From: a virus
Length of the DNA stretch: 51,733 nucleotides
Direction: 5' to 3' (one strand)
UHGV virus genome: UHGV-0405561
Shown: positions 9,363-51,733 of the stretch, in pieces
How positions within the stretch are numbered: position 1 is the first letter of the stretch
Layout of the letters: every line of letters begins with the position of its first letter
Notes under the pieces: model-generated
Told to the model about the DNA's origin: nothing
Database searches by the model: none
What the model saw: only the letters and a program-made list of their open reading frames with translations
Translations under genes and position numbers: made by a program

Positions 9363-9370
9363 TAAATTTC

Positions 9371-9403
9371 AAGGGCTTGTTGAAATCCAACAAGCCCTTT
9401 TTT
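9371..9403. terminator. bidirectional terminator hairpin
   Basis: aagggcttgttgaaatccaacaagccctttttt, between the tRNA fragment and the integrase stop. Confidence 0.6.
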
Positions 9404-9409
9404 CGTATC

Positions 9410-10601: not shown

Positions 10602-10609
10602 TTTTCCTC

Positions 10610-11104: not shown

Positions 11105-11141
11105 ATAATCCTCCAGAAAAAGGAAAGCCCCTGTTCGGGGC

Positions 11142-12409: not shown

Positions 12410-12711
12410 TTTATCGGCTCCGTCATTTCAAAAGCGTCTTGTATCTTTCCGTCAAAATCGTTGTCGCCGTGGTCTTCATCACAGAGCCTTCCGGCGAGAT
12501 ATTCGATCATATCTATAAGCCTCGGCATGGCGTTGCAGGCCGCGACGATATAATCTCCATCGAATTTACTGTTGGCACAGGCTACGGTTTTATCCTTCAA
12601 TCCACCTCTTCCAAGAGAATATATGGGATACATTCCATCCAAAATATACGGCCCCGGTGTCGCTGCATTTTTCTGTTGTTTTAGAGCGTCAAGCCATTCC
12701 TGTGCTGTCAT
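12406..12711 (-). CDS. hypothetical protein (101 aa)
   Basis: ORF from MTAQEWLDAL. Stop overlaps the downstream gene start. Confidence 0.4.
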   Translation of the reverse strand: MTAQEWLDALKQQKNAATPGPYILDGMYPIYSLGRGGLKDKTVACANSKFDGDYIVAACNAMPRLIDMIEYLAGRLCDEDHGDNDFDGKIQDAFEMTEPIK

Positions 12712-12974
12712 TTTCAATTCCTTTCGCTCAGTTTTCGCATATCGCCAGCAGCGGCATATCAAATTCAGGAACAGGATATTCCTGCGGTGAATAGTTCGCC
12801 GCCGCCAGTGCCGCCGCGATGGGTGGGCAGACGCAGTTGCCGATGCCGCGCACCTGCGCCGTCTTGGTGATCGGCGCTCCGTCCGCCGTGCGCATATCAT
12901 CCCGCGTGATTCGTATGCGCGGCCCACGGTTGGGGTATGAAAAGCCCCACCGGGGGAGGGCGAGGCGTGGTGTG

Positions 12975-13784
12975 TTAGGCAATGACCTTGACGCCTTCCG
13001 GCAGGTTTTCCATCAGCCATGCCCGGATGTTGGCGATGGCCTCCAGCTTCCACGCGCCGCCGTCGCACTCGATGAGCTTGCAGGCCAGCGGGCTGGACTG
13101 GAGCCGGAACACGACCTTGTGCGCGGGCTGCGCGACTTCGGAGAAGGTACTGAACGGGTAGAGAACAGCCGGGGAGGGGACGGGGACTTCGGCCTTGCGG
13201 GCCGCGCCCTGCCGGATGGACACTTCCTGTGACACGCCGTCGTCCTGTACGCGGACTTCCGAGGTGTCCACGAGGTTGCCGCTGATCTTGATGAGCGCGT
13301 CGAGATCGTCCGAGGGCACGAAGCAGGACTGGAGGTATGGCACGAACTCGTCGGGCGTGACGAAGCGTCCGAAGGTGTGTTCCGGGACAACGGCGTCGGC
13401 CTGCATGTACGTGGTGCGCTGCTTCCAGCCCCCGAAGGGGGTGGACATAACCCTCACGGTCCTCACATCGCAGACGTGGACAAGGAGCTTTTCGAGGTCC
13501 AGCCCGTCGGGGTTCTGGTTGAGGTAGTCCACCACGGCCTGCAAGGTGCCCACGGTGAGTGTGTCCTGTTCCGCGTCATGGAGGAATTGCCATTCCCCTT
13601 CCGGATCACGCTTGTAGAACCGCAACCCGTCTTCCGTGACATGAACGGGAAGCGTAGCCTTGGCCTTGCCGTCAAGGTACTCGAGTTCCCGGCCTACGCC
13701 GATAAGATGTTTGTCAGCTTCGATGCGGTTGATTTCCATGTGATTCTCCTTTGGGTTACTGGTTGATGTGGGCGTCGTGTTCAT
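12975..13784 (-). CDS. hypothetical phage early protein
   Basis: 269-aa ORF with protein-like composition in the recombination module. Confidence 0.45.
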   Translation of the reverse strand: MNTTPTSTSNPKENHMEINRIEADKHLIGVGRELEYLDGKAKATLPVHVTEDGLRFYKRDPEGEWQFLHDAEQDTLTVGTLQAVVDYLNQNPDGLDLEKLLVHVCDVRTVRVMSTPFGGWKQRTTYMQADAVVPEHTFGRFVTPDEFVPYLQSCFVPSDDLDALIKISGNLVDTSEVRVQDDGVSQEVSIRQGAARKAEVPVPSPAVLYPFSTFSEVAQPAHKVVFRLQSSPLACKLIECDGGAWKLEAIANIRAWLMENLPEGVKVIA

Positions 13785-38651: not shown

Positions 38652-38918
38652 TCAGTAATGATAGCGGCATTGGAGTACGATCAGGGCTTCGCTCTTTTCG
38701 TCCACCTTATAGACGAGCCGATCCTCCTGATTGATGCGTCGTGACCAGCATCCGGCAAGATCGAACCGGAGCGGTTCCGGCTTGCCCAGCCCTTCAAAAG
38801 GATTCCGCATGGCATCGCGCAACAATTCATTGATCCGTTTGACCGTGCGCTTGTCCGTATGCTGCCAGGAGAGGTAATCCTCCCACGCCTGCGGCGTCCA
38901 CGTGAGCAGCATGATCAA
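38652..38918 (-). CDS. yoeB: YoeB/Txe-family toxin
   Basis: TWTPQAWEDYLSWQHTDKRTVKRINELLRDAMRNPFEGLGKPEPLRFDLAGCWSRRINQEDRLVYKV...CRYHY is near-collinear with E. coli YoeB. Confidence 0.85.
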   Translation of the reverse strand: MIMLLTWTPQAWEDYLSWQHTDKRTVKRINELLRDAMRNPFEGLGKPEPLRFDLAGCWSRRINQEDRLVYKVDEKSEALIVLQCRYHY

Positions 38919-39169
38919 TCCTCCAGCTCATGCGGCATGGCCTTGCCCGCATCGGCGGCCTGTACCGCTTCCCTGAGCCGCGCGGCGTTGGCGGGCGAAC
39001 GGAGCAGATACGCCGTCTCCATGATGGCGTTGTAATCCTCAAGCGACATCATGACCACAGAGGGCGATTTTTGCCGGGTAATGATGACTGGCTCATGGTG
39101 ATCGCAGACACGGCTCATGGTTTCCGCAAGGTTTTGCCGGGCTTCGGAGTAGGTGATGGCCTGTGACAT
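38915..39169 (-). CDS. yefM: YefM/Phd-family antitoxin
   Basis: MSQAITYSEARQNLAETMSRVCDHHEPVIITRQ...SLEDYNAIMETAYLLRSPANA. Overlaps the yoeB start by 4 nt. Confidence 0.85.
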   Translation of the reverse strand: MSQAITYSEARQNLAETMSRVCDHHEPVIITRQKSPSVVMMSLEDYNAIMETAYLLRSPANAARLREAVQAADAGKAMPHELED

Positions 39170-39298
39170 GGTGCCCCCTTTGTTATTTTGTACAAAAATA
39201 TGTACAAATAAGGTGGACGTCAAGAGTAAAAGGCGGCCATTCTAAAAATCCACCGCTGTTTCCCCCGCCTCGCTATGGGGCTTTCCTTTTGCCCATGC

Positions 39299-39783: not shown

Positions 39784-40215
39784 GTGGCTGTTGTTGTCTT
39801 TGACCCGCAGGAGTTCCGGGAGGCCTATCCGCGCTTCGTCGATCCGAAGACCGGGCAGCCTCTTCTGACGGATGCCCAGCTTCGGCAGGCGTTCGACGTC
39901 GCCTGTCTGCTCTTGGACAACACGGACTCTTCCCCGGTTCCCTATGACCCGGTCCACGGCGTCATGATCCGCAAGACGCTCCTGTACCTCCTCGTCTGCC
40001 ACTTGGCGACGCTGGCCTTGTGGCCAGTGGGCCAGTCCGGGCCCGTGTCCTCCGCCACGGAGGGTTCGGTGTCTGCGAGCTTCTCCGTGCCCACGGCGAC
40101 GGGGAAGGCGTTCTACAACCAGACGCCGTGCGGACAGGCCTTCTGGCAGGCCGTCCAGCCCTACGTTGCGGGCGGACGCTACTACGCGGTCAGGCGCTAT
40201 CATCCGTGGGGGTAG
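39784..40215 (+). CDS. DUF4054-like head-tail protein
   Basis: GTG start. 143 aa, positional. Confidence 0.4.
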   Translation: MAVVVFDPQEFREAYPRFVDPKTGQPLLTDAQLRQAFDVACLLLDNTDSSPVPYDPVHGVMIRKTLLYLLVCHLATLALWPVGQSGPVSSATEGSVSASFSVPTATGKAFYNQTPCGQAFWQAVQPYVAGGRYYAVRRYHPWG

Positions 40216-40217
40216 GT

Positions 40218-40805
40218 ATGGCGAACGCGCATGTCCTTGGCGGCGGGAAGTGGAAGAAGGCGCTTGAAGCCGTCTCGAAACAGGCGGCGAGCCTCAAGGT
40301 CGGTGTGCTCGAAGGGGCGACGAGCGAAGACGGCGAGTCCGTGGCCACCTACGCCTTTTACAATGAGTTCGGGGCGACCGTGGAAGTGCCGGAGCGGACG
40401 CAGACGCTGTACTTCAAGCGGAACCGGGACGGAACCGTCGGGAACCGTTTCGTCAGGAAAGACAAAAGCGACTTCGCGCAGGACGTGGCCGTGGGCGGGC
40501 ATACGATCACCATTCCCGCCCGTCCCTTCATGCGTTCCACGGTGCAGGCGCAGAAAGACGCATGGGCGAAAGCCTTCGCCGATGCGTTTGTTGCGAAAGC
40601 CCACGAGCGGGATGCCGTCGTGCGCGGGCTCAACCTGCTCGGCAGGAAGATGCAGGACGACATCGTGGCGACCATCAAGTCGAACTTGGCCCCGGACAAT
40701 GCCGAATCGACCAAACGCCGCAAGAACGCCAAGGGCGCGGGCAAGGGAACGCTCATCGATAAGGGGCACCTCCTCAAATCCATCAGCTACGAGGTGGAGT
40801 CGTGA
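40218..40805 (+). CDS. HK97 gp10-like virion morphogenesis protein
   Basis: TITIPARPFMRST motif region and position. Confidence 0.5.
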   Translation: MANAHVLGGGKWKKALEAVSKQAASLKVGVLEGATSEDGESVATYAFYNEFGATVEVPERTQTLYFKRNRDGTVGNRFVRKDKSDFAQDVAVGGHTITIPARPFMRSTVQAQKDAWAKAFADAFVAKAHERDAVVRGLNLLGRKMQDDIVATIKSNLAPDNAESTKRRKNAKGAGKGTLIDKGHLLKSISYEVES

Positions 40806-41266
40806 TGTTCGGCCTTGATCTCCATGCCGTCGTGCGCGGAGCCGTCACCGCCGTCCATCCTGACGAGCGCGTCGTCCGCTATCGGTCAGTGGGGCAATCG
40901 AACGTGCGCGGGAAGATGGTTCCGGCCTACGCCGATCCAGAAACGCTGGATGCGCAGATACAGAGCGAGAAGGATGACGCCCTATACCACGCCGGCCGCG
41001 CCGACGAGAACAGCATTACCCGGACATTTTACCTATGCACCCCGGCGGACTTGGGGAGCCGTGTCGCGGGCATCGTCCGCCCTCTGGCGCGTAACGGGGA
41101 CATGTTTTTCCGTCCTCAGGACGGGACGTGGTGGCTGGTTGTCGCCGTGGTTGAGGACTTTTCCTCGGTGGGCTGGAGCCGGGTGCGCTGCACGTTGCAG
41201 GTGAACGGCCCAGAGGGTGTCGAGCCTCCCGGCGCGGGCGGCGGAACGGAAGAGGAGGGCGCATGA
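40802..41266 (+). CDS. head-tail joining protein (hypothetical)
   Basis: 154 aa, overlapping starts and stops. Confidence 0.4.
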   Translation: MMFGLDLHAVVRGAVTAVHPDERVVRYRSVGQSNVRGKMVPAYADPETLDAQIQSEKDDALYHAGRADENSITRTFYLCTPADLGSRVAGIVRPLARNGDMFFRPQDGTWWLVVAVVEDFSSVGWSRVRCTLQVNGPEGVEPPGAGGGTEEEGA

Positions 41267-41823
41267 GCCAGCCGCCTGCCTATACCCCGGTCGGCGCCGG
41301 TATGCCGGATATTCTCGATGCCTTCTACGGCTTCCTGAGCACATACCTTGTGCGTTACGTCCCGGCGGAAAACATCATCCGGGGCTGGGAAAATCGGTAC
41401 GCCCTTCCGTCAGGAACCAACGACTACATCATTTATACGCTGTCCGGGTCGTCGCGGGTGGGCACCAATGCCTTGTCCGAAGTGTCCGCTGACGGAACCA
41501 TGACTTTCTCCACGCTGTTCGAGGGGACGGTCCAGATCGATTTCTGTTCCGATACCGAAGCCTCCCGCCTTTGGGCAGCGTACTGCGACAGCCTGCTTCG
41601 GAGTCCCGTTGGCCCGGCCTTTTTCGCACCCTACGGTTTCTCGTCAACCTATACCGACAATCCCGTCAGCGTCGAATATGCGGACGGGTCAGACCAGTAC
41701 GTGAAGCGGACCACGCTCACCGTCCATGTCTGCTATACGCTCACATCCACGGTGGCTCTAGAGTACGCCGAGCGCGTACGGTTGAGCCGTCTGGAAAATG
41801 TAGACGCCCACCACAAACCCTAG
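41263..41823 (+). CDS. tail-completion/neck protein (hypothetical)
   Basis: 186 aa, immediately before the sheath gene. Confidence 0.4.
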   Translation: MSQPPAYTPVGAGMPDILDAFYGFLSTYLVRYVPAENIIRGWENRYALPSGTNDYIIYTLSGSSRVGTNALSEVSADGTMTFSTLFEGTVQIDFCSDTEASRLWAAYCDSLLRSPVGPAFFAPYGFSSTYTDNPVSVEYADGSDQYVKRTTLTVHVCYTLTSTVALEYAERVRLSRLENVDAHHKP

Positions 41824-41832
41824 AGGTCAGCA

Positions 41833-43347
41833 ATGCCCATTCCCGCATCGAATATCGTCAAGATCGAACCGCGCGTCATCGCGGCGGGCCGCGAAGAACT
41901 GGAGATGAACGGCCTGTACGTCACCGATGCCCCGCTCCCGCCCGTCGTCTATCCCGCCGCCGTGATGGAGTTTACGTCCGCCAACGCAGTTGGGGAGGCG
42001 CTGGGCAAGACGTCCGAAGAATACGTTTTCGCGCAGCACTATTTCAACGGATATGAAAGCAAGTTCGCCTCGCCCAAGGCCCTGTTCATCGCCCGCCACG
42101 CGCCTGAGGGCCTTGCCGCCTACACGCTCGGCGCGGCCAACGCAAATACGCTGGCCAAACTCAAGGCCATCACCGCTGGGACTATGGCCCTCACCATCGA
42201 CGGTGCCCCGGTCAGCGTTTCGGGCATCGACCTTTCCGGGGCCACGTCCTTCGCTGATGTCGCTGCGCTGGCGTCCGCTGACGCCTCCGACTGGACGCTG
42301 GCCTACGACGGCGCGGCGGGGCGCTTCATCCTGTCCACCAAGACGGTAGGAGCGGATGGCGAAGCCGTCGCCGCCGGATCGAACACGGATACTGAGGGCA
42401 ACCTCGCCTATGCGCTGGGGCTGATGCCCGTGCAGGGCGCGCTGGTGTCTGCCGGCACGGCAGCGGAAACCGTGGCCGAAGTGCTCGACCGCGTAGCCGA
42501 AACCACGCAGAACTGGGTGACATTCACGCACAGGGAAAAGGCGTCCTCCACGTTGGGAAGCGCCGCCGAAACGGTAGGCGAACAGCTTGCGGCGTGGGCC
42601 AATGCGCACTGGGGCACCCTCGCCGTCGTCCACGACGATACGGAAACCCTGATCACCGCACCTTCCGACGCCGACGTCATCGGGGCCATGTCCGTCAATG
42701 ACAATACGGCCTTCATCTACGGTACGACGGTATACGCCGCGTTCATCATGGGTACCGTCGCCTCCATCGACTGGAACCGCATCAACGGCACCATCACGCT
42801 GGCCTTCAAGCGCGGGGACGGCCTTGCCGCAACCGTGAACTCCGAAGGTTACGCCACCGTGCTGGAAGGCCGTAACGCAAATTTCTACGGGGCATATGCC
42901 ACCCGGAACGCGGACTTTGATTTCCTGTATCCCGGCAGGCTTCTGAACAGCGACTACGTGTTCATCGATCCGCTGGTCAACGCGATTTGGCTGAACAACG
43001 CGTTGCAGGTGTCGATCCTCAACGGGCTTACGCAATCGCCGCGCGTGCCCTACACCGAGGCGGGGTTCACCCGCATCCGCTCGTGGATGATGGACCCGGT
43101 CAACCGCGCCCTCACCAACGGGGCTATCGAGCCCGGCGTCATTCTGTCCGAATCCCAGAAGTCCGAACTCGCCGCCGAAGCCGGAACGGACATTTCCGAG
43201 GAACTGTACACACAGGGCTACTACATCCAGATTCTTGACCCCGGCGCGTCCGTCCGCGTGAACCGGGAAACCCCGTCCATTTCCCTCTGGTACACCTACG
43301 GCGGCGCGGTCCAGCGCATTACCGTCGCCAGCACCGCCGTTCTCTAG
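41833..43347 (+). CDS. tail sheath protein (DUF3383-like)
   Basis: 504 aa, followed by tube, chaperone and tape measure. Confidence 0.6.
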   Translation: MPIPASNIVKIEPRVIAAGREELEMNGLYVTDAPLPPVVYPAAVMEFTSANAVGEALGKTSEEYVFAQHYFNGYESKFASPKALFIARHAPEGLAAYTLGAANANTLAKLKAITAGTMALTIDGAPVSVSGIDLSGATSFADVAALASADASDWTLAYDGAAGRFILSTKTVGADGEAVAAGSNTDTEGNLAYALGLMPVQGALVSAGTAAETVAEVLDRVAETTQNWVTFTHREKASSTLGSAAETVGEQLAAWANAHWGTLAVVHDDTETLITAPSDADVIGAMSVNDNTAFIYGTTVYAAFIMGTVASIDWNRINGTITLAFKRGDGLAATVNSEGYATVLEGRNANFYGAYATRNADFDFLYPGRLLNSDYVFIDPLVNAIWLNNALQVSILNGLTQSPRVPYTEAGFTRIRSWMMDPVNRALTNGAIEPGVILSESQKSELAAEAGTDISEELYTQGYYIQILDPGASVRVNRETPSISLWYTYGGAVQRITVASTAVL

Positions 43348-43370
43348 CCGTCCTCCAAAGGAGCTTTTCC

Positions 43371-43817
43371 ATGTCGCAAGCCTACGATTTCGATATCACG
43401 TCAGCCAACGCCAGCGCCGTCCTGACGGTGGATTCCCTGTTTCCTTCGGGGATCGCGCTGCAAATGTTCGCCACGGATCAAGCCGTGGGGCAGGATTCCG
43501 TCGACATCACCGAAACCCGCATGGGCGTGGACGGGCGCATGGTCGCCGGGTTCACGCCGGTCATCTACCCCGTGACCGTCACCCTCGAAGCGGCCTCGCC
43601 GTCCGCCAAAAACCTTGGCACGGTCTGGCGGGCCATGAAGACGGTCCGGGGCATCTACGAATGCACCCTCGTCATCACCGTGCCGAGCATCGCCAAGGTC
43701 TACACGTGGTCGCGCGGGGTCATGAAAAGCGGCGTGCCGTTCCCCTCGATGAAAAAGGTTCTGGAACCGACCACGTGGGTCTTCCACTTTGAAAACATGG
43801 ACGTTGCGGGGGTGTGA
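43371..43817 (+). CDS. tail tube protein
   Basis: 148 aa between the sheath and the chaperone. Confidence 0.55.
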   Translation: MSQAYDFDITSANASAVLTVDSLFPSGIALQMFATDQAVGQDSVDITETRMGVDGRMVAGFTPVIYPVTVTLEAASPSAKNLGTVWRAMKTVRGIYECTLVITVPSIAKVYTWSRGVMKSGVPFPSMKKVLEPTTWVFHFENMDVAGV

Positions 43818-44269
43818 GCATGAGAAAGGAAACCGTCGTCACCATCGAGGACAGGGGCAATCCGCTCACCTTCACAATCCGGGAAATGCCCGCGACGAAG
43901 CTCGAACGCTGGATCATCCGGGCCATGCTGCTGCTTGCCGGTTCCGAAGGGCTGGAAGGTATTTCCGGTACAAGCGTCGAGAACGCCGGGAAGTACCTGT
44001 CCGAACACGGCCTCAAGGCGCTCGCCAACGTCGAGTACGAGAAGGCGCAGCCGCTCCTCGACGAGCTGCTCGCCTGCTGCGCGCGCACCGACGCGGGCGT
44101 CGAGCAACGCTGCACGCCCGACACCGTTGACGGCTACATCGAGGATGTGCGCACGCTCTTCAAGCTCCGCGTGGAGGCCGCGAAACTGAACTTCGGTTTT
44201 TTCGGCGCAAGCCCGTCCGACTCCCCCGCCGATCTGCATATCGGCAAGCCGCGCAAGCCAAAGGGCTAG
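43814..44269 (+). CDS. tail assembly chaperone (short form)
   Basis: 151 aa directly upstream of the tape measure. Ends ...KPRKPKG* with a slippery site. Confidence 0.6.
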   Translation: MSMRKETVVTIEDRGNPLTFTIREMPATKLERWIIRAMLLLAGSEGLEGISGTSVENAGKYLSEHGLKALANVEYEKAQPLLDELLACCARTDAGVEQRCTPDTVDGYIEDVRTLFKLRVEAAKLNFGFFGASPSDSPADLHIGKPRKPKG

Positions 44270-44457
44270 CGGACTTCGCCAATGTCGGCGGCCTGACGGG
44301 AAGCCTCATCGCCCGTCGGGTCGCCACCCTGCACGAGCTGGATACGGTCTACGGCTATGAAGACGCGCTCAACATGGCTGAGGTACTGCTGGTGACGGAC
44401 TACAACGAATGGATCATGCACAAACAGGCGGAAAAGCAATATGGCGACGGTCATTGA
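44260..44457 (+). CDS. -1 frameshift extension of the tail chaperone (long form)
   Basis: Canonical X_XXY_YYZ heptamer A_AAG_GGC at 44260-44266. The -1 frame continues LADFANVGGLTGSLIARRVATLHELDTVYGYEDALNMAEVLLVTDYNEW... to TGA at 44455-44457. Confidence 0.55.
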   Translation, partial: KGLADFANVGGLTGSLIARRVATLHELDTVYGYEDALNMAEVLLVTDYNEWIMHKQAEKQYGDGH

Positions 44458-46573
44458 TTCCCTGCTGATCACCATCGGCGTTGATCCCTCCGGCGTTCAG
44501 CAGGGGATACAAACCGTCGATCAGGCGCTCAAAACTATTGACTCGACGGTAAAGCAAACAGCCGGGACACTCACGGAAGGGCTGAAGCCGAACACGGATA
44601 CGTCGGGTTTGCAAAAGCTCGGCGCCGAGACGCAGCTTGCCGAATCCGCCCTGCGCGAAGCCGACGCCACCGCCCGGCGCGTCGGCGATTCCATGTCTCA
44701 GGCGTTGAAGAAACCCGGCGAAGCCATGCAGGGCACCGCTCGCCTCATCGAATCCGTAAAGGGCTTTCTCGGTGGATTCATTGCGCCGCTCGCCGGGGCC
44801 GTCGCCATCGGCGGCATGTTCGGCAATTTCATCTCGCAAGGGACGCAGCTCAGCGCGCTGTCGAGCAAGCTCGGACGCGACGTGCGCGACCTCGACGCAT
44901 GGGGCGCGGCGGTGGAGCAGGCGGGCGGCTCGGCGTCCGCGTTCCAGTCCACGCTGGACTCGTTCGACAAGGGGATGCGGGAGGCTGCCGTGTCCGGCGG
45001 GGGCGGCAACCTTGAAATGCTCTACCTGCTCGGCATTCGGGCGACCGATGCACGGGGCAAGCTCCGCAGCCTGACCGACATCCTGCCCGATCTCGCCAAG
45101 CGCATCGAAGGCATGAGCAATGCCCGCAGCCGAACCATCCTCGAAAAGATGGGGCTCGACGACGGCACGATCATGTTGCTCCAGAAGGGCGGCAAGGCCG
45201 TCGAAGACCTGATGCGCGACATGCGCGACTTCGCGTTCACGAAGCGGGATACCGATGCCGCGGATGCGTTCAGCGGGGCCATGTCCGGGCTCAAGCGTGC
45301 AGGGCAGAGCGTCGCCAATGTGCTGTTCCGCGAGCTCGTGCCGATTGTCGTGAAGTTATCCGGCGGCATGAAAGAGTTCTTCCGCGTGCTCGTTCAGCAT
45401 GAGCCGTTTGTCCTGTCGTTTTTCGCCGTGTTGACGGCGGCAAGCATGAAGTTCCTCTTGGCGTGGGCCGCAAATCCGGTTGTGCTTTCTATCCTCGCCA
45501 TCATCGCCGCGCTGGGTGCGCTGGCGCTGGTCATCGACGACCTGTACGCCTACACGCAGGGAGGCGGAGCGCGCTGGAAGGACTTTTGGGCGCAGTTCGG
45601 GACGGGGGAAGAGATTTCCCGCAAGCTGTCCGCCTCGTGGGAGGCTCTGAAAGCGATTGGGAAGGGAGTTTTCGAGGGGCTGAAGGAGTACGCGCGGGAC
45701 TTCCTCAAGCTCTTTGATTCCGCCGTTGGTTACGTCAGGCCTGTGCTCGACCTCGTCCTTGGCTTTGGTCAGAAAGGCAAACCGGAACTTGAAGGCATCG
45801 GGAAAGCTATAGCATCACTTATCGCTGGTTTTCTTGCGATCAAAGCCGCTATCGGGGTTTTCAGCGGCGTTATCGGTATCGTCACCAAGCTGGGTGGCGC
45901 GATTCAGATGGTCATTGGCGTAGTCAAGGCCCTGACGCTGGCGATGATGGCGAACCCCGTCATTGCCATCCTCACTGTTCTTATCGGCCTCACAATCCTA
46001 ATCGCCACGAACTGGGACACGATCAAGGCGAAGGTAATAGAATGGGGGCAGACCGCCGCGCAGTGGATCGACGAGGTAAAGGCGAAGGCGGGGAAGCTCT
46101 GGGACGACTTCAGGCAATCCATCCCGACATGGGAAGATGTAAAGGCAAAATTTGCCTCAATCGGAGACAGCTTGAAGAACTACTTCAAAAAGCTGTTTTC
46201 AGATATTTGGGAGAGTCTGCTTTCCGGCATGCCCGACTGGACAAAAAAGCTGCTCGGCCTTGATGCAGAGGCAAAATCCGAAAACAGTGAAAAGGGGCTG
46301 GAAGATGCAAATATGTACGCTGCGGGAGTGCCCGTTTCCGACTCTACGGTGTTCGCTCAATCCATGCCTTACAACCCCGAATGGAAACAGCTTGCTGCCT
46401 CTCAGGCCCTGAGCCGCATGGGTAACTCTTCAAGTACGGACATCAATTCGACCGTCAGCGTGAACACCATCAACATCACCGCACCCGACGGCGACGCGCA
46501 GGCGATTTCCGGGGCCTTGCAGGGCGGGCTGAACAACCTCATCCCGTCAATACAGTCGGGCACCATTCGTTAA
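44441..46573 (+). CDS. tail tape measure protein
   Basis: 710 aa, alpha-helical. Internal hydrophobic segments (AANPVVLSILAIIAALGALALVIDDL). Position after the chaperone frameshift pair. Confidence 0.85.
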   Translation: MATVIDSLLITIGVDPSGVQQGIQTVDQALKTIDSTVKQTAGTLTEGLKPNTDTSGLQKLGAETQLAESALREADATARRVGDSMSQALKKPGEAMQGTARLIESVKGFLGGFIAPLAGAVAIGGMFGNFISQGTQLSALSSKLGRDVRDLDAWGAAVEQAGGSASAFQSTLDSFDKGMREAAVSGGGGNLEMLYLLGIRATDARGKLRSLTDILPDLAKRIEGMSNARSRTILEKMGLDDGTIMLLQKGGKAVEDLMRDMRDFAFTKRDTDAADAFSGAMSGLKRAGQSVANVLFRELVPIVVKLSGGMKEFFRVLVQHEPFVLSFFAVLTAASMKFLLAWAANPVVLSILAIIAALGALALVIDDLYAYTQGGGARWKDFWAQFGTGEEISRKLSASWEALKAIGKGVFEGLKEYARDFLKLFDSAVGYVRPVLDLVLGFGQKGKPELEGIGKAIASLIAGFLAIKAAIGVFSGVIGIVTKLGGAIQMVIGVVKALTLAMMANPVIAILTVLIGLTILIATNWDTIKAKVIEWGQTAAQWIDEVKAKAGKLWDDFRQSIPTWEDVKAKFASIGDSLKNYFKKLFSDIWESLLSGMPDWTKKLLGLDAEAKSENSEKGLEDANMYAAGVPVSDSTVFAQSMPYNPEWKQLAASQALSRMGNSSSTDINSTVSVNTINITAPDGDAQAISGALQGGLNNLIPSIQSGTIR

Positions 46574-46593
46574 TTCCAAAATGGATAGGGAAA

Positions 46594-47109
46594 ATGGCAG
46601 TAGCAGCATCAACAACACAACATTGGGCGCTTATCAGCGACAAAGGGACCACCGCAGTCACTTTCGACTCAATGCTCAGCATCGACGTGAAGAATGAAAA
46701 CAAGCTCCTCTCCTCGCCGGTTGAAGAGTCGGGATTTGCGAGTTACAATAAAGTGTCAAGCCCGCTGGACATCTACGTCGAACTCGCCGCGTCAGCATCG
46801 GAGTCGGGCCACGCGGCGCTGCTGGCGGCGCTCGACAAACTTGCGTCCGGAACTGAGCTTGTATCGCTCGTCACGCCAGACAAAGAATACCGCTTCCTCA
46901 ACATCGAAAGCTATTCGACGAAGCGCACGGCGACGGAAGGGGCCACGCTGCTTGTCGCGGAACTGCATTTGCTGGAAGTGCGGCAGGTCAAGGTACGAGT
47001 ATCACAAGCCGCGATACGAAGCCCGAAACGCCCGACATCGGCGTCGAAAGTTGATCGGGGGCTGGTACAGGCGCAGCCATATAATTCAACCATGTTCAGT
47101 ATCAAATAG
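46594..47109 (+). CDS. tail protein (gpU/DNA-circularisation-N-like position)
   Basis: 171 aa after the tape measure. Contains the near-protospacer of spacer 4 (46982-47013). Confidence 0.45.
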   Translation: MAVAASTTQHWALISDKGTTAVTFDSMLSIDVKNENKLLSSPVEESGFASYNKVSSPLDIYVELAASASESGHAALLAALDKLASGTELVSLVTPDKEYRFLNIESYSTKRTATEGATLLVAELHLLEVRQVKVRVSQAAIRSPKRPTSASKVDRGLVQAQPYNSTMFSIK

Positions 47110-47123
47110 AGTGGGGAGTTACT

Positions 47124-47444
47124 ATGCAGGTAATTCCGCTTTTAGCTATTCCATCTAGTACGTTTCAGGTTATACTTGATGACCAGCAATGCCGTATTTC
47201 GCTCTACCAGCGCGGGCGGCGCATATACCTTGATCTTGATGTAGACAACGAACCGGTATGCCGGGGGGCGATATGTCAGAACCGGGCGTCTGTCGTTCAG
47301 TCGCCCACGCGGTTGTTCAGCGGCACGCTGCACTTCTGGGACACGCTCGGAGACGAGCCGCCGCGATATGATTTACTCGGCACGCGGTTCCTGCTGCTGT
47401 ACGTCGCGGACGGCGAAGAGTTGCCGGATGCGTTGAGGTTTTAG
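47124..47444 (+). CDS. hypothetical tail protein
   Basis: 106 aa, RBS GGGGAG. Confidence 0.4.
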   Translation: MQVIPLLAIPSSTFQVILDDQQCRISLYQRGRRIYLDLDVDNEPVCRGAICQNRASVVQSPTRLFSGTLHFWDTLGDEPPRYDLLGTRFLLLYVADGEELPDALRF

Positions 47445-47517
47445 TGAGCGTAGACAGGGGCGGGGAGAAGCGTTAGAGGAGGGGCGTGGGGCACGCCTCC
47501 CAAAAGGAGGCAACCCC

Positions 47518-47601
47518 ATGAAGCAATTCCTCCGGGACGTTGCGGCGCTTGCGCTTGCTGACGTCATAGCGGCTGTGGTGGTTCACTTGCTGAACCTCTA
47601 A
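47518..47601 (+). CDS. 27-aa hydrophobic peptide
   Basis: Strong SD AAAAGGAGG 7 nt before the ATG. MKQFLRDVAALALADVIAAVVVHLLNL. Followed by the perfect hairpin gccccgtaggaattgccgttcctacggggc at 47611-47640. Confidence 0.3.
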   Translation: MKQFLRDVAALALADVIAAVVVHLLNL

Positions 47602-47892
47602 AAGCAGTTGCCCCGTAGGAATTGCCGTTCCTACGGGGCGCTAAAACTGGATTCTCGAAATCCGGGGGACGTGCCCCACGGGGCGGTGGGTGTTGACGCA
47701 CTCGCAGCCCTTCCTTTTTCAATAGCCATTCACGGGGTTGCGGTCAAGCCCACTCTTCCGGGTTCACAAAAAAGTTGTCTGGAAAAATCTTTTGGAATAA
47801 GGTAGTTGGAAAGTGGACCCCAAAACGAAGGTTTTGGCGGGGAAGTTGATGCAACATCCTGAAAACAAAGGAGGGAGTATCAAAAATCTCTG

Positions 47893-48160
47893 GTTGTCCG
47901 CCGTGTAGGCGGTTTAGAAGTGAGAAACGGCCTGCTGCTTTGCGCCGTAGTTGTTGTCCGCCGTGTAGGCGGTTTAGAAGTAAAGCAAACCCTGAGACCT
48001 TTCCTTTAAAAAGTTGTCCGCCGTGTAGGCGGTTTAGAAGTATGTCACAGTCTCTCTGCTTCAACGATTTCAGTTGTCCGCCGTGTAGGCGGTTTAGAAG
48101 GGCAGGTCAAAGTACGAGTATCGCAAGCTGCGGTTGTCCGCCGTGTAGGCGGTTTAAGAA
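47893..48160 (+). CRISPR. orphan CRISPR mini-array, type I-F-like repeats (5 repeats, 4 spacers)
   Basis: Repeat GTTGTCCGCCGTGTAGGCGGTTTAGAAG (28 bp) at 47893, 47953, 48013, 48073 and 48133. The last repeat is degenerate (...TTTAAGAA). Spacers are 32 bp each. The 5-bp stem and 5-nt loop match the I-F repeat GTTCACTGCCGTATAGGCAGCTAAGAAA. No cas genes in the window. Confidence 0.9.
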
Positions 48161-48186
48161 AGCCCCGCATAATGCAGGGCCTTTCT

Positions 48187-49041
48187 TCATTCTACGACTT
48201 CGCAGTCTTCGATAACAAGATTCCCCAACGCGAACCCTGAAACCTTTCCTTTGAAGATGACATTCTGCCTCTTCTTGAGCTTGGCGGCGGGGTGCTGGAG
48301 TTTCGGGGGCTTCTTGCCGTCGAGTTTATCTGATAATTGCAGCAGCTTCGAGCGGTTGTCTTCCGGCCCTTTGAGGACACACAAGACATTCGACATATCA
48401 CCGATGGGAAAAACAGCCTGATAATCGCCGCTCATGTTTTTCTCGATCTTGGCTATCTTGCCCCCGATCGAGATAGTGCGCCCGCCATACTCCTCATCCC
48501 CAGCCGCCTCATTTTCGTTGTAGGTATTCCAGATTTTGGCGGGAGAGACGGCTGTTTTGGTGTAATACCAATAGTCACAATGATGTGAGGCCTCTTTTTT
48601 TTTCTGTAAAAATGTTTCGCCATCTTTGAAATCTTCTTTTTTTAGCAAAGAAACCATTTTTTGGCATTGCTCATAGAAAGAAGCGTAATCTTCCAGTAGC
48701 ATATATGCGTCTGCTGAAAAACCATAGCCTCTAGGTGCTTCAGGTACTGTATTTATTGCAGCCTGAGCTTCCGCGAGTGCTTCTTTCCCTTTACCTTCAT
48801 AAAAGAAAGCATGTGACTTTGCTCCATGTGCTTCATGGATAATTTCTTTTGTCGAAGAATTTTCTTGTAATGCCTTATCCGCCAGTGTATGAACCTGCTT
48901 GGCTGTCATTTTTTTTTCGTCCAAGGCACTCCATGCGTCTTTCAACTCATCCACCGTCACGGCAAACACGGGCTGTGCGAGGCCAAGGGCCAGCAGGGCG
49001 GCCAGCAAAGGAAATTTTTTCATAGTCCCCCCCATCGCCAT
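48187..49041 (-). CDS. secreted/periplasmic protein of unknown function
   Basis: Sec signal MKKFPLLAALLALGLAQPVFA|VT. 284 aa. The 3' end carries the near-protospacer of spacer 2. Confidence 0.55.
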   Translation of the reverse strand: MAMGGTMKKFPLLAALLALGLAQPVFAVTVDELKDAWSALDEKKMTAKQVHTLADKALQENSSTKEIIHEAHGAKSHAFFYEGKGKEALAEAQAAINTVPEAPRGYGFSADAYMLLEDYASFYEQCQKMVSLLKKEDFKDGETFLQKKKEASHHCDYWYYTKTAVSPAKIWNTYNENEAAGDEEYGGRTISIGGKIAKIEKNMSGDYQAVFPIGDMSNVLCVLKGPEDNRSKLLQLSDKLDGKKPPKLQHPAAKLKKRQNVIFKGKVSGFALGNLVIEDCEVVE

Positions 49042-49044
49042 CCG

Positions 49045-50160
49045 TTACGCTTCATCCGGCTGTTTTTTCAGAGCATCATACCCCAGAGCCGTCGCCCGAA
49101 TCGCCTCGGCGAACCGCAACATGTCGTCCAGCTTTTCAATAGGCTGTTTTTCGTCTTTCTTGCCGTCGTTGAAGAGGCCCACATACTTCTGCTTGCCGTT
49201 GAAATGGAGGCGGCAGAGAGGCTTGCGGTTATTGTCGTCAAGGAGAATGGCGCAATATTTCAAGGCGTCGCGGATGACGACACGTTCGGGGGCGACTGTA
49301 CCGATGAGCATGGACTTGACGAGATAGTATCCTTGCCACTCCTCTTCCGTCGTTACAATGCCGGGCTTGCCCTCATCGGCGCTATCCTCGGCGTTTTCCG
49401 ATGCTTCGGAAGGCTCCGGTGCGGGTTTAGGCGCTGCGGACAAGGCATTTTTAAGGCGGGCATTGATTTGTTCGTTGATGAACTGCTCAATGGCACGAGT
49501 GAGGATAGGCGTAAAGCGTTCTTTCACCGACTGGGTTATTTTGCCTTCATAAACCTGCGCGATGAAAAATTTGACGAATTCCTCGTCCGGTTCCGTAATC
49601 TGACGCGCCAAAACGCTTTTGAACTCACGGGTGTACTTAAGTTCGCTGGCGGCGCTCAAGGCTTCGTCAACGTCGAATTTATCTTTGCACAGCTTCCTGA
49701 TTTCAGGAACCAACGCTTCATCCATGCTCTCAAGGACAAAATCCATGTAGGGTTTGTTGTCCATGAGATTGGGGGCTTCGAGATCGGAGAAGAAACGATA
49801 TCGGTTGCCGTCGGTCAGAATGGCAACGCGGGCCGATGTGACATGGAAATACCGCTGGAGCTGCGTGCATTGACTGCATTCAAGGGGAGCGCCGTAGGGT
49901 TTGCACTCGAAAAGGACAATGGGCTGGCCGTCACGCATGATGGCGTAGTCGACCCGCTCGCCCTTCTTTTCGCCGATGTCGGCAGTGAACTCCGGCACGA
50001 CTTCCATAGGGTTGAATACGTCATAGCCGAGCAGGTGAATGAACGGCATGATCAGCGCGTTTTTCGTCGCTTCTTCGGTTTGCAGATTCTTGCCCTGATT
50101 CCGGCACTTTGAAGCCAAGGCCGTGAGCGCGTCCATGAAATCCATAGTTTCTCTCCCCAT
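49045..50160 (-). CDS. HsdR_N-like PD-(D/E)XK nuclease domain protein
   Basis: N-terminal ATKNALIMPFIHLLGYDV...VDYAIMRDGQPIVLFECKPYGAPL matches the type I restriction HsdR N-terminal/Mrr-like nuclease motif D...E-C-K. Confidence 0.55.
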   Translation of the reverse strand: MGRETMDFMDALTALASKCRNQGKNLQTEEATKNALIMPFIHLLGYDVFNPMEVVPEFTADIGEKKGERVDYAIMRDGQPIVLFECKPYGAPLECSQCTQLQRYFHVTSARVAILTDGNRYRFFSDLEAPNLMDNKPYMDFVLESMDEALVPEIRKLCKDKFDVDEALSAASELKYTREFKSVLARQITEPDEEFVKFFIAQVYEGKITQSVKERFTPILTRAIEQFINEQINARLKNALSAAPKPAPEPSEASENAEDSADEGKPGIVTTEEEWQGYYLVKSMLIGTVAPERVVIRDALKYCAILLDDNNRKPLCRLHFNGKQKYVGLFNDGKKDEKQPIEKLDDMLRFAEAIRATALGYDALKKQPDEA

Positions 50161-50519
50161 AGAGCGTTATAGACCGGTTTATAATGGATCATATCGTTGA
50201 GAAAATCCACCCCGAAAGAGGAGAGGGGGAGCGACTTTACATTTTTCCTATTTTGTGCTGTTCTTTATCCACGGTGCTCGTAACACCAAACTAGGCGGAC
50301 AACGCCACCCGACAGTATGGCTCTTTTTGTGCCTTTTTGCCAAAGTCAAGACTCTTTTTGGCTGTGGTTTTCTGCTATACTTGTATCTTCTTGATGCCGG
50401 GTGTCCCCGATATGTCCAAGGCTTCGGCCCAAAGGCGGGGAGCCGCTCCTAGTTGCGGTTACGAACACCCGGCATCGTCATTCGTAGGCGGTGCCAACAT
50501 CCAAAACTAGGAGTGGCAC

Positions 50520-51449
50520 ATGTCTCAGTCCCTTTGCTTCAACGAATTCACCTTCTCGCCAGTCATCCGCGACAATCAGCCTTGGTTCCGCTCTTCTGAA
50601 ATCGCCACCGTGTTAGGGTACGCCCGAGAGGATACCTTGAGTCGTCTTTACGACAGAAACGCTGATGAATTCTCGTCAGATATGACTCAAGTGGTTGAAA
50701 TCAGCGTAGACCGTCAGTTTGGCGCAGAAGGCCGAGCCCGCATCTTCAGCTTGCGCGGCTGCCACCTCCTCGCCATGTTCGCCCGGACTCCGGTGGCAAA
50801 GGCGTTCCGCAAGTGGGTGCTGGACGTCATCGAGCAGTACGGCGACAGGGTGCCCGTTGCCGAACCCGTGACGCTCAACGACGAGCTGATCAGCGCGTCG
50901 GAACGGGCGGAGCTCAAGCTCATCGTAGACGCCAAGCTCTCGACATACCCCGCCGCTGTGCAGGGCAAGGCCCGCGCCGAAATCTGGGCGAAGTTCAACC
51001 GCCACTTTAGGATTGCAGAATACAAGCAGCTCCCGGCCCGGCTTATGCCCGAGGCCCGCGAGTTCCTGCTTTCTGTCCGCGTCCGCGCCATCAGCGCCAT
51101 ACCCACGGCGGAATCGTCAATCCCGGATCCGGCGCTTCCCGTCGCATCACCAGCATACCGTGAGCGCATCGCGGCTCTCGACCGTCTCGAAGAGGAATGG
51201 ATCGAATTCGCGGGGGAAACCCGCTCCCGGCTGCACCAATTCGTCAACGAGCTCCTGCGCGTCAAGGGGAGCACCTATCCCGAACTGTTGAACCGGGTAT
51301 GTCCCCGGCAGAACATCTCGAAGGACCCGCTCCTCGGCATCCTGCAATCCAACTCGTACAATGCCCAAACATGGATTGACGCGGGAATCTCGGAAATGAG
51401 AACGGCCATCCGTGCCGCGAAGACCGCGAACAGGTTGATGCTAGGGTAA
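50520..51449 (+). CDS. Bro-N domain antirepressor-like protein
   Basis: MSQSLCFNEFTFSPVIRDNQPWFRSSEIATVLGY...LSRL is a Bro-N N-terminal domain. The first 32 nt are the near-protospacer of spacer 3. Confidence 0.7.
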   Translation: MSQSLCFNEFTFSPVIRDNQPWFRSSEIATVLGYAREDTLSRLYDRNADEFSSDMTQVVEISVDRQFGAEGRARIFSLRGCHLLAMFARTPVAKAFRKWVLDVIEQYGDRVPVAEPVTLNDELISASERAELKLIVDAKLSTYPAAVQGKARAEIWAKFNRHFRIAEYKQLPARLMPEAREFLLSVRVRAISAIPTAESSIPDPALPVASPAYRERIAALDRLEEEWIEFAGETRSRLHQFVNELLRVKGSTYPELLNRVCPRQNISKDPLLGILQSNSYNAQTWIDAGISEMRTAIRAAKTANRLMLG

Positions 51450-51504
51450 TCCTTGGCAAGCCTACATGAATCATATAAGATTTTACCAACGGAGGGATTC
51501 CCCC

Positions 51505-51733
51505 ATGTTGTTGTTCGATACCGGAAAAAAGCTGGAAAAAGCGTTTACCGCCGAGCAGTTCGACGCCCTTGTCGAGGTGCTCGAAAAGCGTGAGGATAAG
51601 GCCGCGACCAAGGAAGACCTGCGCGAAACCGAGTTGCGGTTGCAGGTTGAACTGGAGAAGGTCCGCGGAGAAACGGAAAAGGTTCGTTCCGAGACGGAAA
51701 AGGTTCGTTCCGAAATGAAGGAAACCGAAGCTC
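51505..51733 (+). CDS. DUF1640-like coiled-coil protein, 3'-truncated at the window edge
   Basis: MLLFDTGKKLEKAFTAEQFDALVEVLEKRED...EKVRGETEKVRSETEKVR. Paralogue of the ORF at 3-209. Confidence 0.55.
   Translation, partial: MLLFDTGKKLEKAFTAEQFDALVEVLEKREDKAATKEDLRETELRLQVELEKVRGETEKVRSETEKVRSEMKETEA

Follow-up and report, generated by a model that had tools for sequence, protein, structure and literature searches.

The stretch of viral DNA analysed here (51,733 nucleotides in all; hereafter the window) carries integrase, terminase, portal and sheath genes, and near its right end, flanked by tail and baseplate genes and by phage accessory genes, lies a CRISPR array of five repeats and four 32-nt spacers (47893–48160), as determined by sequence reading, repeat finding and a pattern search allowing 3 mismatches. 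The 28-nt repeat, GTTGTCCGCCGTGTAGGCGGTTTAGAAG, begins at 47893, 47953, 48013, 48073 and 48133, with a period of exactly 60 nt. Repeats 1–4 (47893–47920, 47953–47980, 48013–48040 and 48073–48100, all on the + strand and recovered by both repeat finding and pattern search) are identical, and repeat 5 (48133–48160, + strand; GTTGTCCGCCGTGTAGGCGGTTTAAGAA) is a degenerate terminal copy with three mismatches at its 3' end (TTTAAGAA versus TTTAGAAG). The intervening spacers, S1 (47921–47952), S2 (47981–48012), S3 (48041–48072) and S4 (48101–48132), read on the same strand, all differ from one another; S1, being leader-proximal, is the newest and S4, being trailer-proximal, the oldest. This is the composition that an earlier, sequence-only reading of the same DNA had described, degenerate last repeat included. 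The 5-bp stem with a 5-nt loop that it had noted in the repeat is likewise recovered by folding, at positions 6–20 and followed by an 8-nt tail (minimum-free-energy structure .....(((((.....)))))........; −9.7 kcal/mol, z = −2.95). Compared with the Rfam family CRISPR-DR4 (RF01317), which we take to be an I-F-type repeat family, each repeat matches over its full length on the + strand with 25.6 bits (E = 0.004), a score below the gathering score of 35; a scan of the whole window against Rfam at the gathering threshold gave no match.

The repeat had no match in 100 shuffles, and no further copy within 3 mismatches was found elsewhere in the 51.7-kb window, which rejects the dispersed REP-like element that the sequence-only reading had set against its own proposal. 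Across the Bilophila and Desulfovibrio genome loci and gut-metagenome loci examined, the repeat occurs either in regularly spaced arrays or as one repeat at the position of a host array, array B, beside cas2-3. Two open reading frames that run through the array of the window (47744–48064 on the − strand and 47940–48215 on the + strand) are artefacts, their sole "homologues" being other arrays.

Upstream of repeat 1 is an A+T-rich leader of about 135–140 nt (47750–47892, + strand), delimited by alignment and BLAST; the leader-like character of this region had been recognised before, and its extent, formerly given as 47800–47892, is corrected here. The leader aligns with those of both host cas-adjacent arrays and other phage-borne arrays through a set of conserved blocks, GGCTTCA-AAAAAAGTTGTC, GAATAARGTAGTT, AACGAAG and, right before repeat 1, CT(A/G). 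Similarity by BLAST begins at 47756–47760, and homology to an array-less phage (L103) stops at about 47748, near the start of the leader. Counted from the sequences, the leader is ~94% identical to that of a sister phage (L141); identity is 76–79% to the leaders of L017 and L087, and 66% to that of host array B, a level at which competence for adaptation is not assured. The shuffle control for global identity between leaders is weakly discriminating, and the case for leader homology is made by the conserved blocks and BLAST.

Within the most conserved block of the leader, sequence reading and the leader alignment suggest a candidate promoter, TTGTCT-N17-TAAGGT (47775–47803, + strand), which is a weak consensus match and for which a consensus scan made no call. 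At the opposite end of the array, folding identifies a hairpin followed by a T-rich tract (48156–48187, + strand; −14.6 kcal/mol, z = −3.4), the hairpin standing directly 5' of TTTCTTC. Of the downstream hairpin terminator proposed in the sequence-only reading, the hairpin is thus confirmed; a simple consensus terminator scan made no call on it, and it likely terminates the array and, on the other strand, the convergent gene at 48187–49041.

The array is part of an accessory island (47445–51733) delimited by synteny with a related, array-less phage, L102, and inserted with the baseplate-plug gene on one side and the baseplate genes of the window start on the other. In addition to the array, the island comprises a small ORF with hairpins and genes for an OB-fold protein, an HSDR_N nuclease and a Bro-N protein, and it takes in the 5' part of a CCDC90-like gene. 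L102 is syntenic with the window over 37.6–47.4 kb and then continues, also at the protein level, with homologues of window 300–875 and the baseplate genes; neither a remnant leader nor a remnant repeat was found at the homologous site of L102 or of L103. The earlier placement of the array between tail genes and a Bro gene holds on the tail side; directly downstream stand the OB-fold (tRNA_anti-like) gene and then the HSDR_N nuclease gene, and Bro-N is 2.4 kb away.

An intact attP (the tRNA-Ser 3' half, adjoining the integrase) and a tail module that wraps from the window end to the window start identify the window as a temperate phage genome in excised or circular form; the array is phage-borne, as had been stated, and an integrated prophage is not what this sequence shows. 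The earlier claim that no cas gene is present in the window is upheld: tblastn with six Bilophila I-F Cas proteins returned noise (best E = 0.058), and PADLOC, applied to the 81 window ORFs, reported methyltransferases, BrxP-like and similar hits and no cas, results that together reject a hidden cas gene. No tRNA genes were found in the window, and megablast of its 40000–51733 portion against GenBank phages gave no match. No PHROG family was found for gene164 (10610–11104), for a 27-aa ORF (47518–47601) or for the ORF at 50255–50452, and no Pfam family for gene164.

Bilophila wadsworthia ATCC 49260 has a complete type I-F locus (cas2-3/csy1/csy2/csy3/cas6f/cas1f) in which array B adjoins cas2-3, and the repeat of the window agrees with the array B repeat at 28/28 positions. 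NCBIfam scores are above cut-off for Cas1f (397 bits), Cas3f (754 bits) and Csy3 (241 bits) and below it for Csy2 (66 bits) and Csy4 (34.5 bits), and NCBIfam gave no match for the protein that occupies the Csy1 position. The repeat identity bears out the type I-F assignment of the sequence-only reading, which had looked to the host for a compatible I-F cas operon; the host species has such an operon, with an identical repeat. Cas need not be present in all hosts, since at three Bilophila loci (L118, L162 and L174) apparently a cas1 fragment alone is next to the arrays. ATCC 49260 also harbours a related prophage (L035) that bears a 4-repeat array of its own.

The exact repeat is found in 67 human-gut metagenome loci, most of which are cas-adjacent array B, and cas-adjacent gut arrays hold spacers that match the phage itself. 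These spacers are identical (32/32) to the window at 35691, 25543, 13242 and 12221; a further one matches at 31/32 positions at 47518, and another at 29/32 at 29622 (mismatches 6, 18 and 30). Each of these six matches is flanked by a CC PAM; together with one additional match that lacks it, CC accompanies 6/7 of the host-array matches (p = 2e-6). Since cas-adjacent arrays thus carry perfect, CC-flanked spacers against the phage, it can be concluded that the phage infects hosts whose Csy machinery uses the same repeat.

The spacers of the phage array, in turn, match other phages. S1 corresponds at 31/32 positions (mismatch at position 12) to the 3' end of the tape-measure gene of the sister phage L141 (1444–1475, − strand); S2 corresponds at 29/32 (mismatches 1, 7 and 16) to L141 at 3224 and to a second sister contig, L151, at 646; and S3 corresponds at 31/32 (mismatch at position 6) to the start of a Bro-N gene in the IMG/VR contigs L103 and L104. 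A CC PAM is present at the targets of all three spacers (3/3, p = 6e-4). The single mismatches of S1 (position 12) and S3 (position 6) fall at multiples of six, and in type I systems every sixth base is left unpaired, being flipped out. IMG/VR scans with S1, S2 and S4 bearing N at every sixth position gave no match. The sole level of external match for S2 is 29/32, with seed mismatches at 1 and 7, and a relaxed 23-nt scan with this spacer gave no match. No external target of S4 was found, including in a relaxed 23-nt IMG/VR scan. The comparison with related phages that the sequence-only reading had called for thus yields CC-flanked matches for S1, S2 and S3, and these are consistent with its suggestion that the array takes part in conflicts between mobile elements.

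All four spacers correspond to genes located within 2.4 kb of the array (p about 9e-5), and the carrier's own versions of the sites, which match at 19, 26, 27 and 29 of 32 positions overall, have seed mismatches or a non-CC flank. The site orthologous to that of S1, at the 3' end of the tape-measure gene (46373–46404, − strand), keeps its CC PAM and is strongly diverged (19/32), within a locally hypervariable stretch that has conserved flanks on either side. The S2-like site (48226–48257, + strand; 26/32), in the OB-fold gene at 48187–49041 (−), also keeps the CC PAM, and three of its six mismatches (1, 4, 7, 16, 28 and 31) are in the seed. The S3-like site (50519–50550, + strand; 27/32), where the Bro-N gene at 50520–51449 begins, has mismatches 1, 7, 13, 16 and 28 and a 5' flank of CA, not CC. 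For S4, the best match is the S4-like site in the phage's own Dit-like tail gene at 46594–47109 (46982–47013, + strand; 29/32), which has a 5' flank of GC, not CC, and whose mismatches (11, 23 and 29) are all at third codon positions; the source allele of S4 is predicted to read GTC-CGG, and so to provide a CC PAM, at the place where the present phage reads GTG-CGG.

Because it combines a CC PAM with 26/32 identity, the S2-like site in the phage's own genome could lead to priming or to autoimmunity. Three other assemblies (L105–L107) have this array without S2 and represent the more commonly assembled, three-spacer variant; the L105 contig occurs in 8 samples. S1–S4 were found solely in arrays of the present phage, that is, in the window and in L105–L107, and in no cas-adjacent array.

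In the two sister contigs, L141 and L151, whose flanks are about 80% identical to the window, an array occupies the corresponding position; its leader and degenerate last repeat are those of the window and its other repeats are perfect, but none of its spacers is shared with the window. L141 holds the spacers of L151 plus one extra, leader-proximal spacer, a difference that might instead reflect a deletion in L151. At a second phage locus, arrays with a common leader and trailer contain 3, 8 or 9 different spacers. The spacers of L141 have no targets among the sequences compared, window included, and there is no sign of mutual targeting, in that the spacers of the other phage-borne arrays compared do not match the window.

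Taken together, the anatomy of the array, the identity of its repeat with that of the host, the homology of its leader and the absence of cas, along with CC-flanked sites in other phages that match nearly perfectly, mutations in the carrier's own alleles, a turnover of spacers at an orthologous locus and the targeting of the phage by same-repeat, cas-adjacent arrays, are best explained by a working cas-less CRISPR array of a temperate Bilophila myovirus, which would rely on the host for Cas6f, Csy and Cas2-3 in excluding rival phages; we consider this explanation highly probable. The array would be transcribed from its own host-like leader, both in the lysogen and early in infection, and host Cas6f would cleave every repeat at the foot of its 5-bp hairpin, a cut site taken from what is established for Csy4, to release 60-nt crRNAs with the 8-nt 5' handle UUUAGAAG. 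Once bound in the host's Csy (Cascade) complex, these crRNAs would bring in host Cas2-3, so that incoming phage DNA with a CC-flanked protospacer would be degraded. The predicted targets are the rival-phage alleles of genes flanking the array (the tape-measure 3' end and the Dit-like, OB-fold and Bro-N genes), and the carrier would escape through own alleles that have seed mismatches, many mismatches or no PAM. The outcome would be heterotypic superinfection exclusion, with a presumed fitness benefit. The leader is probably also used by host Cas1 and Cas2-3 to insert new spacers at the leader end, an adaptation in situ.

A more far-reaching interpretation, unlikely in our judgement even when its two forms are taken jointly, makes the array a selfish, homing-like element. 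Since all four spacers correspond to positions that, in rival phages, lie no more than 2.4 kb from the insertion site of the array, host Cas2-3 would in a mixed infection cause a break in the rival genome beside the allelic site, which may be "empty" or differently armed, and recombinational repair may use the array-bearing genome as template, copying the leader-array cassette together with the linked immune alleles into the rival; the process would resemble the localized marker exclusion exerted by the Seg and homing endonucleases of T-even phages. In the weaker form, a poison–antidote linkage, spacers may persist only together with tightly linked resistant alleles, so that recombinants avoid self-targeting. 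Either form would explain why targets are close to virus-borne arrays and, if true, would account for the proximity left unexplained by Medvedeva et al. (PMC6858448).

It is improbable that the array acts instead as an RNA decoy, a Racr-like anti-CRISPR whose transcripts, abundant upon phage replication, would soak up Cas6f and Cas7f or dilute host crRNAs in Csy complexes and thereby shield the phage from the host I-F system, the spacers being incidental. The targeting of the phage by host cas-adjacent arrays does create pressure to blunt the I-F system, and I-F repeat units carried by phages have been proven to act as inhibitors, binding Cas6f and Cas7f (PMC10651486); however, Racrs are solitary repeats without spacers, whereas the window contains four full 28 + 32 nt units and no solitary copy. 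Incidental spacers would also be hard to reconcile with CC-flanked, near-perfect targets in other phages, with spacer turnover alongside repeats that stay perfect, and with the presence of a complete leader. A decoy role would, for its part, be compatible with guide function.

More improbable still is a passive relic, in which a piece of array B with its leader was captured through recombination or aberrant excision and is now carried without function. The cassette has been kept at one site in two phage lineages whose flanks are ~20% diverged, its non-terminal repeats are all perfect, and the spacer sets of the two lineages are completely different; furthermore, the absence of S1–S4 from every cas-adjacent array and the correspondence of all four to neighbouring genes of the phage are unlike a random piece of host array. 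These features outweigh the evident opportunity for capture, which is provided by a prophage remnant of the same family right beside array B. Many Bilophila array B loci are flanked by a YoeB/YefM module with 81–97% protein identity to window 38652–39223, and in L114 array B is flanked also by gene164 and by an integrase 92% identical to that of the window, integrated at tRNA-Ser; the repeat, too, is that of array B.

Repeat identity with host array B, and the distance of only about 8 kb that separates the phage attB (tRNA-Ser) from array B in L114, would also suit a recombination handle, by which the repeats would mainly offer homology for insertion into, or spacer exchange with, the host array and thereby disrupt or edit host immunity, an idea raised in PMC7099407. 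We regard this as very improbable: the phage encodes an integrase of its own and retains its tRNA-Ser attP intact, no contig was seen in which phage DNA is joined to a host array via the repeat, no spacer was seen in both phage and host arrays, and the CC-flanked phage targets would be left unaccounted for. Finally, although repeats often break or mis-join short-read assemblies and the window ends overlap imperfectly (86% over 96 nt), a host array mis-joined into a phage contig can be dismissed almost entirely, because the junction of leader, array and downstream gene recurs in three independent assemblies from other samples (L105–L107) and both flanks are syntenic in L141.

The preferred reading, a cas-less phage array that would guide the host's own type I-F machinery against rivals, makes the locus a new example of an already described phenomenon, and this placement is well supported. 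Bilophila wadsworthia is a culturable human-gut pathobiont, and strain ATCC 49260, which combines a complete type I-F system with a related array-bearing prophage, offers a bacterial model for virus-borne arrays. Questions suited to this model are whether host Cas processes phage-encoded crRNAs, whether lysogens exclude rivals and why targets cluster near the array. A further one is canonical spacer acquisition by a phage array with a host-like leader, which earlier surveys, as far as they are represented in later accounts, thought unlikely for bacteriophage mini-arrays. A single gut CRISPR machinery would moreover be used simultaneously by the host against the phage and, to judge from the spacer matches, by the phage against its competitors.

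Clostridioides difficile prophages carry cas-less type I-B arrays, in which the repeats are of the host type and the spacers are directed against further phages of that species; these arrays differ from the present one in subtype and phylum, and are usually longer. Mini-arrays that are borne by viruses, lack cas and turn host Cas on related viruses form an established class (PMC6858448, PMC7099407, PMC11656645), and in the case of the Saccharolobus portogloboviruses SPV1 and SPV2 it was shown experimentally that mini-arrays mediate exclusion (Medvedeva et al. 2019, PMC6858448). Like the present phage, SPV1 and SPV2 have no cas, and they have host-like repeats and a promoter-bearing leader; their spacers are directed against closely related viruses, the orthologous sites of the carrier being mutated; their targets are close to the array, a proximity that the authors declared unexplained; and orthologous arrays have different spacers, implying turnover (PMC6858448). 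Whereas those viruses are archaeal, the present array belongs to a bacterial temperate myovirus and is of type I-F, and the exclusion attributed to it is predicted from sequence. The mini-array definition of Medvedeva et al. specifies one or two spacers (PMC6858448), a number exceeded both here (four spacers, or three in the common variant) and in related phage arrays (3 to 9 spacers), so that the present array is a short phage-borne array, not a mini-array in the strict sense.

The phage and prophage mini-arrays of Faure et al. 2019, as far as they are described in later papers (PMC6858448, PMC7099407, PMC11656645), have one or two spacers and are without host-like leaders, and spacer gain was proposed to occur via recombination with host arrays. 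In the same accounts they share with the present array the absence of cas, host-identical repeats, and spacers against adjacent genes of close relatives and not of the carrier; the present array differs from them in having a host-homologous leader. The extra spacer next to the leader and the existence of arrays with as many as nine spacers suggest canonical adaptation.

Vibrio phage ICP1, in the summary of Seed et al. 2013 given in PMC11656645, likewise has an I-F array in its genome and uses it in a conflict between mobile elements. It possesses, however, a full type I-F cas operon of its own, unrelated to that of the host, and targets a host defence island, whereas the present phage, which is without cas effector and adaptation genes, depends on its host and has other phages as its targets. 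RNA anti-CRISPRs (Camara-Wilpert et al. 2023, PMC10651486) resemble the present array as phage-borne copies of host I-F repeats that are preceded by a promoter and have Cas6f and Cas7f as interaction partners, and are unlike it in being solitary repeats that have no functional spacer and inhibit CRISPR-Cas. In Pseudomonas aeruginosa ATCC 10145, an isolated I-F array, CRISPR3, was shown experimentally to support interference and primed adaptation in trans (PMC13142298, preprint). CRISPR3 is chromosomal, its leader has 3 mismatches to the cas-adjacent one, as against 66% identity here, and its spacers do not target alleles of the genes that flank it; like the present array, it is of type I-F, lies far from cas, has a leader derived from a cas-adjacent array and is associated with mobile elements.

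The window carries an orphan type I-F-like CRISPR array at 47893-48160 (sequence reading, repeat and pattern search), composed of five direct repeats of 28 nt with a period of exactly 60 nt and four mutually unrelated 32-nt spacers (S1-S4, numbered from the leader). Four of the five repeats share the sequence GTTGTCCGCCGTGTAGGCGGTTTAGAAG, the fifth differing from them at three positions, all at its 3' end; its predicted fold is a hairpin at positions 6-20 (stem of 5 bp, loop of 5 nt) that leaves an 8-nt tail, and every copy matches Rfam CRISPR-DR4 full-length on the + strand, at scores below the gathering score. No additional copy occurs anywhere in the window with up to three mismatches allowed, shuffled sequence gave no matches, and both a homology search with Cas proteins and a defence-gene scan found no cas genes in the window. 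The array ends at a stable hairpin predicted by folding, followed by a T-rich tract (48156-48187), that adjoins the stop codon of the convergent gene 48187-49041. The array is real, and the sequence-only reading had interpreted it correctly.

Its carrier is a temperate myovirus genome (58.5% G+C) encoding terminase, portal, DUF3383-type sheath, tape measure and an E217/Pam3-type baseplate, in addition to lysozyme, ERF, SSB, CII-like regulators and a tyrosine integrase. Next to the integrase gene (9410-10462, - strand), positions ~9303-9362 constitute the attP core, with a sequence identical to the last ~60 nt, at the 3' end, of a tRNA-Ser(GGA) gene; a related integrase element occupies this tRNA gene in the metagenome contig L114, only ~8 kb from the host's cas2-3-side array. 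Together, these observations identify the window as the attP form, so that the earlier placement of the array inside a prophage holds for a phage genome and fails for an integrated one. The head-tail structural module contains an inserted YoeB/RelE-type toxin and Phd/YefM antitoxin pair (38652-39223, - strand), encoded on the strand opposite to the module's own genes, and the tail-fibre region (ORFs at 4074-6808) includes several 9-nt tandem repeat arrays at 6242-6752, such as 6.8 copies of GGAGGAAAT, which suggest Gly-rich, collagen-like repeats.

The array is preceded by a Dit-like gene (46594-47109), a Pam3_gp18-like baseplate-plug gene (47124-47444) and a small ORF with hairpins, and followed by an OB-fold gene (48187-49041, - strand), an HSDR_N nuclease gene (49045-50160, - strand), a Bro-N gene (50520-51449) and a CCDC90-like gene interrupted by the window end. 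The related phage contig L102 lacks the array; its synteny with 37.6-47.4 kb of the window places the array within a ~4.5-kb accessory island of the tail module, and its direct continuation into homologues of the window start and baseplate genes indicates that the window is circularly permuted. The window ends (1-96 and 51638-51733) overlap imperfectly (86% over 96 nt) in the CCDC90-like coiled-coil gene, which holds 21-nt tandem repeats (also at 21-77 and 51673-51713) and whose single L102 counterpart matches both ends; this looks like a circular genome opened inside a repetitive gene, or two diverged copies. The OB-fold (tRNA_anti-like, with a weak Sie-like PHROG match) and HSDR_N-type genes form a two-gene unit (48187-50160, - strand) directly after the array and possibly provide the island with another module for defence or exclusion. 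In the sister phage L141 the OB-fold gene is retained at 70% amino-acid identity, and the nuclease has no match.

The ~135 nt before repeat 1 align, through several conserved blocks, with the leaders of other phage-borne arrays and of arrays A and B, which flank the type I-F cas operon of Bilophila wadsworthia ATCC 49260; as a whole, they share 66% identity with the leader of array B. Because homology to the array-less phage contig L103 ends at ~47748, the exact leader start, the mobile unit comprises leader and array. The module at 47486-47748, which ends at this same point, contains a hydrophobic ORF of 27 aa (47518-47601), preceded by a good ribosome-binding site, and then three strong hairpins; L103 and L104, otherwise unrelated to the window, share the module at 96% identity, and a host array spacer from L124 targets it with a CC PAM (31/32 in the window, 32/32 in L103 and L104).

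The exact repeat is present in ATCC 49260, another Bilophila species and a gut Desulfovibrio MAG. Scaffold 81 of ATCC 49260 has the order array A, cas1f, cas6f, csy3, csy2, csy1, cas2-3, leader and array B, with an array B repeat identical to that of the window and an array A repeat that differs at one position. The operon itself (4754-13572; L030 and L089) runs cas2-3, csy1, csy2, csy3, cas6f, cas1, leaving cas1 and cas2-3 at opposite ends, each adjoining an array; the canonical I-F order places cas1 and cas2-3 side by side. Neither Pfam nor NCBIfam gave a match for the protein at the Csy1 position. A metagenome scan located the exact repeat at 67 loci from the human gut, the majority being array B beside cas2-3 (1 to 21 repeats), and spacers of these array B loci match the window phage perfectly in four cases and near-perfectly in two, all with a CC PAM (6/7 when one further match without CC is included; p = 2e-6). 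The phage accordingly infects hosts whose type I-F system uses exactly its repeat, and ATCC 49260 also holds a related prophage with its own four-repeat array (L035). Among host loci, a spacer in several cas-adjacent arrays (L122, L130, L155) matches the host's own csy2, inside the cas operon, at 32/32, flanked by GT instead of a CC PAM, the matched gene being seen in L108, L111, L126 and many other loci. In L118, L162 and L174, short arrays adjoin only a 102-aa C-terminal cas1 fragment and a solitary inverted repeat. Such loci may have arisen by deletion of the operon between arrays A and B and, if so, some hosts lack Cas.

Three of the four spacers match other phages, each with a CC PAM: S1 the 3' end of the tape-measure gene of L141 (31/32, mismatch 12), S2 a site in L141 and in L151, from the same sister phage, that is orthologous to part of the window's OB-fold gene (29/32, mismatches 1, 7 and 16), and S3 the Bro-N gene start of L103 and L104 from IMG/VR (31/32, mismatch 6), which belong to a Bilophila phage because they too are targets, with a CC PAM, of cas-adjacent arrays. 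S4 had no external match in IMG/VR scans, relaxed ones included. The carrier's own sites are altered: that of S1 (46373-46404, - strand) is strongly diverged (19/32, 5' flank CC); that of S2 (48226-48257, orthologous to the S2 target) has three seed mismatches (26/32, 5' flank CC); that of S3 (50519-50550) matches at 27/32 with a CA flank; and that of S4 (46982-47013) matches at 29/32 with a GC flank, its three differences falling at synonymous third-codon positions. None of the four is more than 2.36 kb away from the array, in a genome of 51.7 kb (p about 9e-5). The isolated array of L017 shows a like pattern: two of its four spacers match L017 itself imperfectly, without a PAM, 2.5-2.8 kb away, and another element carries a CC-flanked site that one of these matches at 30/32. 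In L148, spacer 2 of the phage-borne array (897-1404) matches the contig itself at 662, ~235 nt upstream and again adjoining the array (position 1669 of L003 is noted alongside); this self-match is perfect (32/32) but flanked by AT instead of a CC PAM.

On the best-supported reading, the phage array, lacking cas genes of its own, works through host Cas proteins against rival related phages. It would be transcribed from its own leader and processed by host Cas6f, whereupon host Csy proteins and Cas2-3, guided by phage crRNAs, would destroy the rivals; the outcome would be heterotypic superinfection exclusion, the carrier avoiding self-targeting via its mutated alleles. Spacers would probably be added by host Cas1 and Cas2-3 via the phage leader. 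A decoy acting like an RNA anti-CRISPR (Racr) is less well supported, and such an effect could coexist with guide function.

Capture from host array B is a plausible origin judging from genomic context, since a same-family phage has left a remnant (YoeB/YefM module, gene164 and integrase at tRNA-Ser) beside array B at many Bilophila loci. The YoeB/YefM copies beside array B, again in many loci, have ~86-88% nucleotide identity to 38652-39223. That the array is a passive relic of array B is less well supported than a guide function, as is a role as a recombination handle. The same phage array lacks S2 in other samples (L105-L107). At the same site in L141/L151, whose flanks are ~80% identical, the leader and degenerate last repeat are the same and the repeats perfect, with entirely different spacers, L141 having one more than L151 at the leader end. 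At a second locus, beside homologues of the window gene 10610-11104, phage arrays with a common leader, terminal repeat and trailer carry 3, 8 or 9 differing spacers. S1-S4 occur in none of the cas-adjacent arrays compared. Taken together, these comparisons favour an array that is under selection and gains its spacers in situ over one that copies them from host arrays; in L129, a repeat variant shifts along the array. An assembly artefact is likewise less well supported. The 10610-11104 product (gene164, - strand), a 164-aa protein adjoining the integrase, belongs to no Pfam or PHROG family; in related phages its gene lies, in divergent orientation, next to phage-borne arrays with 3-9 spacers (L003, L023, L026, L129, L148) and ~1.8 kb from that of L035. 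It may be a functional partner of the arrays, the alternative being that the locus is another hotspot of insertion.

The Bilophila phage array is a further example of an already-known array class, and a literature search found no paper describing such an array for Bilophila phages. It is neither a Racr or solitary repeat unit nor an ICP1-like complete system. Bacteriophage mini-arrays, as described in PMC6858448, PMC7099407 and PMC11656645, have one or two spacers and no host-like leader, whereas this array has a host-homologous leader, and its spacers number more than two and show signs of polarised acquisition. In these features it resembles the archaeal mini-arrays of Saccharolobus portogloboviruses (SPV; PMC6858448), as well as the isolated type I-F array of P. 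aeruginosa, which works in trans (PMC13142298). It offers a tractable bacterial system for phage-borne arrays. The proximity of targets to the array, left unexplained for the SPV arrays (PMC6858448), also characterizes the Bilophila phage array; this second, independent instance makes it worth testing a homing or marker-exclusion hypothesis, whereby Cas2-3 would cut a rival near the array site and repair would copy the array cassette.
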